From Candidatus Aenigmatarchaeota archaeon (GTDB taxonomy: Archaea > Aenigmatarchaeota > Aenigmatarchaeia > CG10238-14 > SCSR01), in NCBI GenBank assembly GCA_039091335.1, contig JAWCME010000003.1:1-38295 (forward strand): a stretch of DNA of 38,295 nucleotides, given 5' to 3'. Numbering within the stretch: position 1 is the stretch's first letter; every line of letters begins with the position of its first letter. The notes below the pieces were generated by a model that saw nothing but the letters and a program-made list of their open reading frames with translations, was not told the origin of the DNA and did not search any database. This document shows, in pieces, positions 2,820 through 26,468 of the stretch. The position numbers and the translations under genes were made by a program.

Positions 2820-5340
2820 TCAGCTTGGGGGCATTTCTAAACTAAGTATTTTTGACTCTGATTTTTCCATTGTAACACCATATATTACATCACCATACTT
2901 TATCATTTGCTCGTTGTGTGTTATTATCAAAAACTGTGCATCCTTAGAAAGTGATTTTATAAGTTCTGCAACCTTTTTTGTATTCTCTTTATCCAAGGCT
3001 GCATCTACTTCATCAAGAATGTAGAAGGGTGCGGGCTTAAATTGTTGAATCGCAAAAAGAAATGCAAGAGCAGTCAAACTCTTTTCTCCTCCAGAAAGAG
3101 AGTCTATGTTTGTTAGTGTTTTTCCTCCGGGGTTTGCTTGAATTATTAACCCAGAGTCTAAATTAAGGGGGTCTTCCAACTCCAGGCTTGCATTTCCATT
3201 TGTCATCCTATTAAACACTTCGTTGAATTGTTTGCTAACTTCTTTTAAACAGTTATTAAATACTTCCATTCTTTTTTCCTCTATTTTTTGTATCATGTCT
3301 AAAACTGCTTTTTTCTCTTCAAGTATTTTCTCATATTTTTCTTTGTAATTGTCAAACTCTGATTTGAATTTTTCATATTGCTCTATTGCCTTAAAGTTTA
3401 CTGGACCAAGAGACAAAAGCCCTTGCTGAACTTCCTTTGTTTCTTGTTCCAAAACCCTTATACTTTTATCCATCGGCTCAACACCCTCATACTGAAGTAG
3501 TTCAATTTTTAAATTTTCCAATTCGGTTTCAATCTTTGCTTTTTGTATTTTTAGTCTACCAACTTCTGTCTGAAGCTTATACATTCTTTCATAGATATTC
3601 TTTCTTTCAATCTTAAGTTTCTCCAACTCTGTTTCTGCCCCAAAGTTAAATTTTTTAAAATCCAAAAATTCTTTTGTTTTTTCCACCTTAGAATATTCTT
3701 CCAGTTTTCTTTTAGCTTCCTCATTCTCTTTTCTAATCCTTTCTATTTCTTTTTCAAGTGCTTCCTTTGTCTTTATATATTCTTCAATTTTATCTCTTCC
3801 AAATTGTCTTATCTTTTCTCTTATCAAATATCCCCCAGTCATCGCTCCACTTCTTTCTATCAAATCTCCGTCTAAAGTTACCATCCTTACTTTTCCAATT
3901 CCTATCGTTCTTGCAACTTCTAAGTCCTTTACAATAAGCGTGTTTCCAAGAACAAATTCAATAGCAGGTAAAAACTTTTTATCAAATTTAACAAGTTTTG
4001 ATGCTATTCCAAGCACTCCGTTTTTCTTCAACATTTCCTTTTCTTTCAGCTCCCTTGGTTTAATTTTATTAAGTGGTAAAAATGTTGCTCTTCCTATCTT
4101 CTCTCTTTTTAAAAACTCTATGCAAAATTTTGCGGTTTCTTCGTTGTCTACCACTATATCATTCAAATGTTGTCCCGCTGCAATTTCTATTGCAATCCTG
4201 TATTTTTCCGGAACCTTTATTATGCCCGCAATCGTACCAAAAACTCCCTTTAAATTTTGTTTAATTATTTCGTTCACACTTCTTGAAAACCTTTCTTTTA
4301 TATCTGTTTCTATATCATTTATCTCCTGAATTCTTTTTATTAGCTCATCAAGCCTTTCTATTTCCTTCTTGTTGAATTCAATTTTTGTTTCATTGGTCGA
4401 GATATTTATTCTTAGAAGTGATGCCTTCCTATCGACCTCTATCAAGTCTGAAAAATTTGAAAACTTTTCTAAAAATTCTTTTACCTTTTTTTCAGTTTCT
4501 TCTAGTCTATTTTCAATCTCCTTTGCTTTTTTTTCAAATTCCAATAATTCATTTTCTTTCTTTTGTATCTCTTCTTCTATTGTTTTTAAATTTTTTTCAA
4601 ACTCACAATATCTTTTATGAGCTAAGGATGCCTTCAAGATTATAAGCTGTCTTTGAAGGTTTTGATATTTGAGTGCTGCATTCCTTTCCTCCTCCAGTCT
4701 TTTGAAAGTATCATATCTTTCGGATATTATTATTTCTGCTTCCCTGAGTCTTGCGTCTACAGCCTCCAAATCCTTTTTTGCCTTTTCCCTCTTTTCATTG
4801 TACTCCGCTATTCCGGAGATTTCGTCTATTATTTGTCTTCTTTCTATCGGGTTCATTTCAATTATGTTTGTCACATCACCTTGCAGTATTATGTTATGAC
4901 CGTCTGGATAAATCCTTGCAGCCGATAAAAGTTCTAGAACCTTTTCTCTTGTTGTAGTCTTACCCTGAATTTTATATACACAAACCCCCTTTCTATTCAC
5001 TTTTCTTGTGATTGAAACCTCCTGATCGTCAAAAGGAAATATTTTGTTCGAATTATCGAGATATAACACTACAGAGGCGTATTGTGCTGGTGAACTCCCG
5101 TCGCCTCCATGATATATAAGTTCATGAAGTCTTTCTGCTCTTAAAGATTTGGCAGAAGTTCTACCTAGAACAAAGCAGATGGCGTCGCATAGATTAGATT
5201 TTGGCCTCAGTTTAACCCCTGAGCTTACCAACACCGTTCGGACCACAAACTATGTTAACGCCATTGGTAAGAGGGATAGATATTCTTTTGTTAAAGCTTT
5301 TAAACCCCTGCAATACTATCCTCAATATCGATGTTTTCAA
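2820..5340 (-). CDS. smc: Chromosome segregation protein SMC, two exons (5340-5225, 5199-2820), 831 aa after splicing
   Basis: TTG 5340 after AGGTGA; exon 1 encodes ...LQGFKSF...CGPNGVGK, exon 2 SNLCDAICFVLG; hinge GRATFLPL and GAMTGG; LSGGEK signature; Walker B ILDEVDAALD. Confidence 0.92.
5200..5224 (-). other. 25-nt BHB intron in smc mRNA
   Basis: UGGU-AA^G-CUCAG-GGGUUAAA-CUGAG-GCCA-AA^A; removal gives GGT AAA TCT (G-K-S) and joins the two frames. Confidence 0.88.
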
Positions 5341-5344
5341 TAAA

Positions 5345-5350
5345 TCACCT
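5345..5350 (-). promoter_or_regulatory. Shine-Dalgarno-like site for smc
   Basis: AGGTGA ends 4 nt before the TTG at 5340. Confidence 0.7.
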
Positions 5351-5488
5351 TCCTATATTAATATATTAATTTTTTCAATTAAATCAGAATGTAAATTTAG
5401 TTGAAATTTAAAGTTTATTTTTCTTTTAAATCTACCATGCTCAAAATTGCTAGAATTAAATTTTTTATTTAAAAACTTATTTTTAACT

Positions 5489-6322
5489 ATGCCTGCAAAT
5501 CTCCCTAGGGAATGGTTTATTTTGGAAGAAGAAATGAGAAATACTAAAAGCATTCAAGAAAAAATAGAAAAATTAGAAAGGCTTATTGCACTTACACCCA
5601 AGCATAAGGGAACTGAAAATTTAAGAGCGCAGTTGAACAAAAGATTGGCTAAGTTGAGAAATGAGATGGAAAAGAGTAGCAGGAAAGAGCACATAAAAAG
5701 TAAATTTGAAAAAAATGGTGATGTTTTGGTTTCTATACTCGGATTTACTCAAATAGGAAAAAGTACCTTGTTAAAAAATTTAACAAACGCCTCTGTAGAA
5801 ATAAGTAACAAACCTTATACAACAAAGGAAATTGAAAGTGGAATATGCAAATGGAATGGTGTAAGCATTCAGTTTGTCGAAATACCATCGTTTTTTCTTA
5901 AAAGGCACTTAGCTGTAGCAAAAACTTCTGATTTGTTGGTATTGCTGGTAAGAGACGAAGAAGATTTAAAAAAATTAGAATATATTTTAAATGAAAATAA
6001 TTTTGCAGAGAAGAAAAAAATAGTTTTATTTAGCAATTTTCTAAAAAATTTGTTTGAAGTAAAGGATTTTTCTGAATTTTTGAATAAAATCTTAGAAGAA
6101 GTAAATGTTTTTAGAATTTTTACAAAGCCACCAAAAAAAGAAGTTAGTAAGGATGCGCTAGTTTTTAAACTAAAACCAAAAGTTAGAGATGTTTTGAAAA
6201 GAATAAATGAAAGTTTTCTTGAAACCTTTAAATTTGCAAAAGTTTTTAGGAAAAAAGAAATTAAACGGGTTGGTCTGGATTATGAGCTTGAAGACGGAGA
6301 TATCATTGAAGTTCATGCTTAG
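5489..6322 (+). CDS. DRG/OBG-family GTP-binding protein with TGS domain (divergent)
   Basis: MPANLP, PKHKGTENLRAQL, GFTQIGKST, KPYTT, C-terminal RVGLDYELEDGDIIEVH. Confidence 0.85.
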   Translation: MPANLPREWFILEEEMRNTKSIQEKIEKLERLIALTPKHKGTENLRAQLNKRLAKLRNEMEKSSRKEHIKSKFEKNGDVLVSILGFTQIGKSTLLKNLTNASVEISNKPYTTKEIESGICKWNGVSIQFVEIPSFFLKRHLAVAKTSDLLVLLVRDEEDLKKLEYILNENNFAEKKKIVLFSNFLKNLFEVKDFSEFLNKILEEVNVFRIFTKPPKKEVSKDALVFKLKPKVRDVLKRINESFLETFKFAKVFRKKEIKRVGLDYELEDGDIIEVHA

Positions 6323-24120: not shown

Positions 24121-24257
24121 TGCCCCCACCGGGATTTGAACCCGGGTTTGCTGGAGAACTCTCAGCCTTTCATCTTTTTTTCAAACCTTTCGAAATCAAT
24201 CGAAAGGGCTGCATCCTTGACCGGATTTTCCTGGCAGACCATCTAGACTATGGGGGC
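24121..24257 (-). tRNA. tRNA-Glu(UUC) with three introns (24219-24236, 24169-24200, 24148-24160)
   Basis: GCCCCCA/TGGGGGC acceptor; removing 18+32+13 nt gives a 74-nt cloverleaf with CAGCC-CTTTCGA-GGCTG. Confidence 0.88.
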
Positions 24258-25025: not shown

Positions 25026-25125
25026 TGGGCGAGGCCGGATTTGAACCGGCGACCGTTCCCGGTAAAACTCTCGGTTATCAGCCGATTAAGCTAATTGTGC
25101 TCCAACCAGGCTGAGCTACTCGCCC
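25026..25125 (-). tRNA. tRNA-Ile(GAU) with two non-canonical introns (25086-25096, 25056-25069)
   Basis: GGGCGAG/CTCGCCC; removing 11+14 nt gives CTCGG-CTGATAA-CCGAG arm and a 75-nt cloverleaf. Confidence 0.92.
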
Positions 25126-26385: not shown

Positions 26386-26468
26386 GGGCTCGTAGTCTAA
26401 TGGCAAAGACGCTGTCTTCGCAACTTTGGAAAAGACAGAGACTCCGGGTTCGAATCCCGGCGAGTCCA
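26386..26468 (+). tRNA. tRNA-Ala(CGC) with 10-nt canonical 37/38 intron (26423-26432)
   Basis: G3:U70 pair (GGGCTCG/CGAGTCC); CTGTC-TTCGCA^A-GACAG; BHB helix UUCG/UGGA. Confidence 0.95.

Follow-up and report, generated by a model that had tools for sequence, protein, structure and literature searches.

The smc locus and its interrupted P-loop

This analysis concerns a stretch of 38,295 nucleotides (nt) from a Candidatus Aenigmatarchaeota archaeon (assembly GCA_039091335.1, contig JAWCME010000003.1, positions 1 to 38,295), here called the window, and within it the chromosome-organisation gene smc, whose Walker A loop, or P-loop, is interrupted by 25 nt containing a stop codon. The gene lies on the minus strand and is present as one copy in the whole metagenome bin (search of the bin, with the 100% self-match). 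Its layout is as follows:

5353-5345, minus strand: Shine-Dalgarno-like sequence GGAAGGTGA, 4 nt upstream of TTG 5340, the smc start
5340-5225, minus strand: smc exon 1, with TTG start, 38 codons and 2 nt of a Lys codon (GFKSF, GPNGVG-K; from translation and Pfam)
5224-5200, minus strand: 25-nt insert, proposed relaxed HBh'-type bulge-helix-bulge (BHB) mini-intron, with an in-frame TAA at 5214-5212 (from sequence and fold)
5199-2820, minus strand: smc exon 2, the last base of the Lys codon, then SNLCDAICFVLG and onward to the hinge, the C-terminal head and the stop (from translation and Pfam)

The frame opened by TTG 5340, a codon which aligns with the Met of the MKT.. starts in relatives, reads LKTSILRIVLQGFKSFNKRISIPLTNGVNIVCGPNGVGK, then LRG, and then reaches the TAA stop within the insert, such that an unspliced message yields a truncated product of 42 residues. 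The downstream open frame, 5198-2820, starts SNLCDAICFVLG and is offset by one base from the frame of exon 1; exon 2 comprises 793 positions, the last of them the final stop, and its 792 residues are not interrupted by any other stop. The Pfam SMC_N profile is shared between the two pieces, positions 2-36 falling on the first and 38-216, together with SMC_hinge, on the second, with only the split Lys codon between. The original prediction for this DNA had placed the true SMC N-terminus, with its Shine-Dalgarno sequence, TTG 5340, GFKSF and GPNGVGK, out of frame with the rest of the protein and had located a TAA in the insert, and translation agrees on both counts.

Excision of 5224-5200 turns GGT AA + A TCT into GGT AAA TCT, and hence gives G-K-S followed by N-L, as in relatives; that removal of exactly 25 nt returns GPNGVGKS to one frame, as had been claimed, is borne out by the sequence, by the alignment with relatives and by Pfam. 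Because of the run of A, four neighbouring 25-nt registers would give the identical protein. A working Walker A loop requires precise removal, since the reading frame meets a TAA within the insert, and a frameshift of whatever kind would separate GK from S by eight foreign residues. Alignment with the smc loci of 29 relatives confirms the borders of the insert, the loop being uninterrupted in 27, occupied by an intein in one and cut by a contig end in one.

We suggest that these 25 nt are a young BHB mini-intron, free of any open reading frame, which is spliced from the smc precursor messenger RNA (pre-mRNA), an explanation in which we place moderate confidence. Splicing is favoured because of the geometry of the insert, the parallel case of rpl37e, and the presence of like elements in the ribosomal RNA (rRNA) and transfer RNA (tRNA) genes of the host.

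Geometry of the insert

The elements of the putative motif, as read from the fold, are the following:

5230-5227, minus strand: 5' strand of the central helix, UGGU, in exon 1, pairing with GCCA at 5205-5202
5226-5224, minus strand: 5' bulge AAG, predicted cut after the second A (5225/5224), unpaired in the lowest-energy fold
5223-5206, minus strand: inner hairpin, with CUCAG 5223-5219, an 8-nt loop 5218-5211 and CUGAG 5210-5206
5205-5202, minus strand: 3' strand of the central helix, GCCA, in the intron
5201-5199, minus strand: 3' bulge AAA, predicted cut after the second A (5200/5199), the outer helix being absent in this register

In the proposed mechanism the exon sequence UGGU and the intron sequence GCCA would pair in the transcript to form the central helix, with the AAG bulge and the CUCAG/CUGAG hairpin to one side and the unpaired AAA to the other. 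The EndA enzyme that splices tRNA and rRNA in this lineage would then cut after the second base of each bulge, RtcB would join the exons, and the joined mRNA, ..GGU AAA UCU.., would direct the synthesis of an SMC with an intact Walker A motif (GPNGVGKS), the partner of the ScpA and ScpB proteins encoded downstream. Cutting and rejoining of the RNA at the insert probably does take place.

The relaxed form of the BHB motif, in which one flanking helix is missing, is accepted for splicing enzymes of broad specificity, and the smc insert corresponds to it in having a fully paired central helix (4/4), a 3-nt 5' bulge and an inner helix of 5 base pairs (bp), while cleavage behind the second base of both bulges would rebuild the conserved SMC protein. 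Since homology fixes the borders of the insert independently of folding, Monte Carlo simulation is a better test of this geometry than the z-score of a fold. The flanks, the length and the homology-fixed borders were retained, and a case was counted when one of five registers gave a 4/4 central helix together with an inner stem of 5 bp or more. Of 200,000 shuffles of the insert, 67 qualified, and of 200,000 random inserts matching contig C23 in base composition, 454 did. The central helix alone is weak evidence, occurring in 34,604 of 200,000 shuffles. Further copies of the 25-nt insert were sought in the bin, with up to 5 mismatches allowed, and none was found.

The same arrangement could be read in terms of translational bypass, in which the ribosome would take off at the Lys codon AAG (5226-5224) and land 25 nt on at AAA (5201-5199), making the same protein. 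Lys codons do flank the skipped stretch at the needed distance, with a hairpin between them, and the product would be identical. In the bypass of phage T4 gene 60 the take-off and landing codons are identical, a stop codon stands right after take-off and a hairpin is present. The smc locus would likewise have a short untranslated gap in a coding sequence, a hairpin, and matching codons at the ends, but, unlike gene 60, its codons differ (AAG versus AAA) and the codon after take-off is CUC and not a stop, TAA standing four codons after take-off. Moreover, inserts of the same type are found in untranslated rRNA and tRNA genes, where they are explained by a splicing enzyme and not by the ribosome. 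We know of no translational bypass in archaea, no search having been aimed at it, and regard this explanation as highly improbable.

Introns of the stable RNAs and the cut rule

The bin comprises 570 kb in 29 contigs and is 87% complete, with an estimated contamination of 1.1%. Mini-introns of 10-97 nt that resemble the smc insert occur in the host's own 16S, 23S and tRNA genes, although these lie in stable RNAs, whereas the smc insert lies in a translated message. Thirteen of the 25 tRNA genes above cut-off are at least 90 nt long, and in the window three of four tRNA genes are interrupted (24121-24257, 25026-25125 and 26386-26468). A tRNA-Ala of the window, with the G3-U70 pair, has a 10-nt intron at 37/38 whose inner helix is absent, and another tRNA gene of the window is interrupted twice, in the D loop and in the anticodon loop. 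Introns of tRNA genes were taken only where a long outer helix was present or from the Infernal alignment, ARAGORN and a loose BHB scanner having given many chance solutions.

The 16S gene (C1:92675-94420) measures 1,746 nt against a model of 1,478 positions, and the 23S gene (C1:83872-87099) 3,228 nt against 2,987. When these genes are aligned to relatives, BHB geometry is seen in four 16S inserts (81, 56, 44 and 97 nt) and in one 23S insert (17 nt), and in these five the borders defined by alignment lie exactly at the predicted cut sites or 1-3 nt from them. Neither of the two other 23S inserts, of 31 and 69 nt, has a clear BHB motif. The rule that the enzyme cuts after the second base of each bulge, on which the original prediction relied, can thus be said to have been checked on the organism itself, because the borders of its rRNA inserts agree. 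Like the smc insert, the 97-nt 16S intron is without an outer helix, and the bulges of the rRNA introns are similarly A-rich, the 3' bulges being mostly AA/A or UA/A. RtcB is present in the bin (PF01139, E = 4.6e-85, profile positions 1-209 of 426; C25:37091-37729) and ends 18 bases from the contig end; the remainder of rtcB was not found in the bin.

A second interrupted protein gene

The ribosomal protein gene rpl37e, 1.8 kb from smc, has a comparable structure:

7192-7134, minus strand: rpl37e exon 1
7133-7114, minus strand: 20-nt BHB-type insert of rpl37e, with the layout gugu AG/A ... acac AA/A, inside the zinc knuckle (from comparison with G019)
7113 to at least 7008, minus strand: rpl37e exon 2

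Excision of the insert restores ..HTLCR-RCG.. and with it the CRRCG motif, and the Pfam L37e profile is divided between positions 2-19 on the first piece and 19/20-50 on the second. The fold is strong and BHB-like, with a 9-bp outer helix (z = -4.77, 0 of 200 shuffles being as good), and in the Monte Carlo simulation for this geometry 315 of 200,000 cases matched. The interrupted rpl37e is probably the native copy, because it lies close to smc, as in many relatives. No rpl37e intron was seen in relatives, where the weak hits are different zinc-ribbon proteins; in G012 the second rpl37e copy ends at a contig end exactly at the intron site.

These two genes were the only BHB-type interruptions of protein genes among 28 junctions flagged in the bin when the whole genome of the relative G019 was compared with it by tblastn, in both directions. 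The junctions at C1:1832 and C13:4749 are gene boundaries seen through antisense frames, two in-frame differences of about 300 nt relative to G019 have no convincing motif, and a run of N at C2:1486-1551 interrupts a 705-residue gene. The reverse comparison, of G019 with the bin, gave 16 places, of which the three inspected are gene boundaries or antisense frames and the rest are rRNA genes or changes of 1-4 nt. A de novo genome-wide BHB scan fusing open frames produced 2,171 candidates when inner stems of 4 bp or more were counted, mostly at gene boundaries, and missed both real cases. On contig C18 a single stop-free frame of 333 residues, from 2553 on the plus strand, joins two genes that are separate in G019 and that we take to be those of the ribosomal proteins S13 and S4.

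Presence of the insert in the DNA

Six hot-spring metagenome runs, from two studies, hold parts of the window. A contig of run X1 covering 5038-5331 spans the insert with 0 differences over 294 bases, and one of run X2 covering 4950-5800 spans it with no gaps and with one unrelated difference over 851 bases. Among the run contigs no joint skipping the insert was reported; in run X6 a contig of another organism has an uninterrupted Walker A loop. An artefact of assembly or binning, by which the 25 nt would be absent from the organism's DNA or be a minor variant of it, is to be weighed against these contigs. In its favour, the sequence derives from a metagenome bin of 29 contigs with duplicated stretches of related populations, runs X1 and X2 belong to one study, the bin itself may derive from one of the two, and contigs can hide minor variants by dropping the rare ones. 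However, the insert stands in separately built contigs of two runs, with no joint that skips it, and a structured insert of 25 nt with both flanks perfectly conserved would be an unusual error of assembly. We consider such an artefact very improbable.

Splicing or a recent lesion

The main rival to splicing is a very recent inactivating insertion, in which a BHB- or hairpin-shaped 25 nt came to lie in the P-loop codon of a gene that is being lost, and is unspliced or poorly spliced. We hold this to be unlikely. The two explanations are best weighed together, beginning with the state of smc and of the genes downstream:

2815-2111, minus strand: scpA, kleisin partner of SMC, intact, directly downstream of smc (Pfam SMC_ScpA, E = 5.7e-16)
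2003-1515, minus strand: scpB, intact, downstream of scpA (Pfam SMC_ScpB, E = 2.3e-37)

The smc gene has no sign of decay and evolves no faster than in relatives. Over 207 aligned residues its identity to three outgroups is 78%, against 74-77% for the nearest relative, and at sites that are invariant in all the others it has 10 changes of its own, while that relative has 12; dN, the nonsynonymous divergence, is 0.157, dS, the synonymous divergence, being saturated. If smc is dead it must have died very recently, because there is a single insert, no second lesion in 2.4 kb and no rise in rate. A second, intact smc beside a decaying copy, which the original prediction had named as its refutation, was looked for in the bin, and what was found there is one smc only, with no decay. 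A lesion also fits poorly with the intact state of scpA and scpB, with the finding of smc in all 98 of the phylum's high-quality genomes, with the rarity by chance of BHB geometry at borders defined by homology (the 67 of 200,000 shuffles given above), and with the existence of like inserts in rpl37e and in the rRNA and tRNA genes, those in stable RNAs having to be removed for function.

Several observations weigh against splicing, and a number of them would suit a lesion. To take first the fold, the outer helix has 0 pairs in the strict register, so that the canonical hBHBh' form is not attained and the motif is relaxed, as had been recognised from the outset. In the lowest-energy fold the central helix has grown to 5 bp (UUGGU/GCCAA), and on the 3' side there is a 1x1 internal loop followed by 3 bp, with the first A paired and no clean AAA bulge. 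The canonical 3' bulge is, in these predictions, an alternative conformer. Thus, of the fold originally described, the AAG bulge, the CUCAG/CUGAG stem and the UGGU/GCCA pairing are retained and the clean AAA bulge is not. The significance of the fold depends also on the window chosen for folding: for 61 nt the z-score is -0.22 and 74 of 200 shuffles fold as well, whereas for 44 nt it is -3.31 and 0 of 200 do so.

The distribution of the insert points in the same direction. The loop is uninterrupted in the nearest metagenome relative, whose protein is 79% identical, and among the 150 matches listed from 371 genomes of the phylum this smc is the only one with an open frame ending just upstream of the Ser. 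A pattern scan of the 371 genomes for an insert of 13-60 nt in the loop found one in this genome only; three of the genomes matched the pattern, two of these being an uninterrupted ABC-type ATPase, and a reversed control pattern gave 1 match. Because no relative shares the insert, there is no support from covariation. On this comparative evidence the insert appears to be young, and its uniqueness within the phylum would be expected of a lesion as well. Likewise, smc was without a match at E <= 1e-30 in 22 of the 371 genomes, many of them incomplete.

Further points arise from the host and its RNA. None of the runs listed for the window is registered as RNA. In the run labelled metatranscriptomic the contigs cover only 4623-4773 and 4907-5057, together with another organism's uninterrupted loop, and so leave the insert uncovered. 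The bin must hold at least two related populations, because small contigs duplicate stretches of large ones (C13/C27, C7+C10/C1, C3/C28 and C8/C23), syntenically and with roughly 50-90% protein identity. An intact second rpl37e lies in the same bin on contig C8 (2086-2238), which shares 71-82% identity with stretches of C23 and some of its gene order. Relative to continuous orthologs in G019, about ten frame changes of 1-2 nt are found in other genes of the bin (on C10, C15, C28, C29, C4, C25 and at C23:40786-40801, outside the window). These small frame changes could be sequencing errors, real frameshifts or decay.

Finally, EndA was not found in the 87%-complete bin, either with the Pfam profile or by tblastn with a relative's protein. 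The many tRNA and rRNA introns imply that the host has the enzyme. It is found in 40 of 40 relatives, in a single-unit form of about 190-230 amino acids (aa), with a frame of 193 aa in G019, and in that genome the 36 kb around EndA are without a counterpart in the bin, synteny resuming at the ends of C27 and C2. The EndA gene most likely falls in an assembly gap between these two contigs, as this arrangement suggests.

The proposal of an smc intron has accordingly fared unevenly, with the geometry, the cut rule, the rpl37e case and the lack of decay in its favour, and the failure to find EndA in the bin and the restriction of the insert to a single genome on the other side.

The intein site

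The insert lies at, or, depending on the register, 1 nt upstream of, a site that is used by inteins. Among the 150 matches listed, 16 smc frames of 998-1,398 residues are long enough to contain one, and in 5 of 5 long frames examined an intein stands exactly between the Lys and Ser of GPNGxGK/SN. These five (L131 in G006, L132 in G138, L133 in G129, L134 in G160 and L135 in G153) range from 185 to 556 residues, start with Thr or Cys and end with His-Asn; SMC inteins of 529-556 aa are found in some relatives. A stretch related to the SMC inteins is also seen in another gene of the bin (C26:19743-21089; tblastn E down to 1.8e-16).

Given this common site, the 25 nt could be the scar of an imprecisely deleted intein, in support of which inteins occur in the same loop of all five relatives examined and the 16 long frames would have room for one. 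However, the insert has neither a Cys/Thr-Leu/Val-x-Gly-Asp start nor a His-Asn end, its 25 nt are not a multiple of three, and pairing with the upstream exon would not be expected of a scar. As to an intein proper, which would be a stop-free in-frame insert with Cys, Ser or Thr at its start and His-Asn at its end, the insert has 25 nt, a TAA and no end motifs. The two kinds of element share the Walker A site, but an SMC intein is made as part of the protein and then excises itself, whereas the smc insert, with its stop and its length, needs removal at the level of RNA. An intein scar is, in our judgement, the most improbable of the explanations considered, and readings other than those named here share a small remainder of the probability.

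A different connection, which we put forward as a speculation with little probability behind it, is that the mini-intron is tied to the traffic of homing endonucleases at the SMC intein site. In one version the insert would break the recognition sequence of the endonuclease and so render the host immune to the intein, while being harmless at the RNA level; in another it would be all that is left of a mobile BHB intron which had homed to the same conserved sequence. Beside smc and rpl37e no homing endonuclease gene was found, the neighbours being a GTPase, DUF359, a nucleotidyl transferase and ThiI.

Relation to known spliced messages

Archaeal tRNA and rRNA introns with BHB motifs, including the relaxed HBh' and hBH forms, were reportedly catalogued by Marck and Grosjean 2003, and a BHB intron in the cbf5 pre-mRNA of Crenarchaeota is said to have been described by Watanabe 2002 and Yoshinari 2006. 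The smc case differs from that of cbf5 in its host gene and in its site, the Walker A loop, and also in the enzyme, which for cbf5 is the crenarchaeal heterotetramer, whereas the smc host is of DPANN type and its relatives possess a single-unit EndA. According to a study of the cbf5 intron, the pre-mRNA is cut by the tRNA splicing endonuclease and the joining of the exons restores the frame (PMC2738675, Yokobori 2009). As described there, splicing of cbf5 was demonstrated by experiment and the intron is common to most Desulfurococcales and Sulfolobales (PMC2738675); the smc insert occurs in a single genome, and its splicing is predicted.

The choice of cbf5 as the well-known archaeal mRNA intron is sound, and a 2023 review adds a second, in that it counts two archaeal mRNAs as known to be spliced, those of cbf5 and of Haloferax HVO_1309, with more expected (PMC10485636). 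The HVO_1309 mRNA of Haloferax volcanii is, in the same review, cut by the splicing endonuclease and seen in spliced form by RNA sequencing (PMC10485636; primary paper PMC7714728). As is proposed for the smc pre-mRNA, it is an mRNA substrate of the tRNA splicing endonuclease outside the Crenarchaeota, although the gene and the lineage are different. In a 2026 review of non-canonical splicing, BHB splicing in archaea comes up for tRNA only (PMC13149111). In a further paper the single-unit EndA of DPANN archaea, with its extra loop, is linked to heavily disrupted tRNA genes, and tRNA and rRNA BHB introns at non-canonical positions, including the relaxed HBh' and hBH forms, have the geometry and the cut rule that we apply to smc (PMC5829648). 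A BHB intron in smc, in rpl37e or in any DPANN protein gene was not found in a full-text literature search that left subscription journals largely uncovered.

Implications for reduced archaeal genomes

In the literature searched, BHB introns of archaeal protein genes are very few, cbf5 and one Haloferax gene. If the explanation favoured here is correct, such an intron would be present in a DPANN-type archaeon, in a chromosome-organisation gene and inside its catalytic loop, and the reach of the single-unit EndA would be extended to relaxed motifs outside tRNA. Annotation pipelines would call such genes truncated, and the gene content of reduced archaeal genomes may on that account be underestimated. 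That the insert coincides with the intein site hints at a way in which tiny introns could arise or persist. Were the tie with homing endonucleases also to be true, inteins and tRNA-type introns would be competing for the P-loop codons of essential ATPases, and these reduced archaea would routinely rely on the splicing of mRNA by EndA and RtcB to express their genes.

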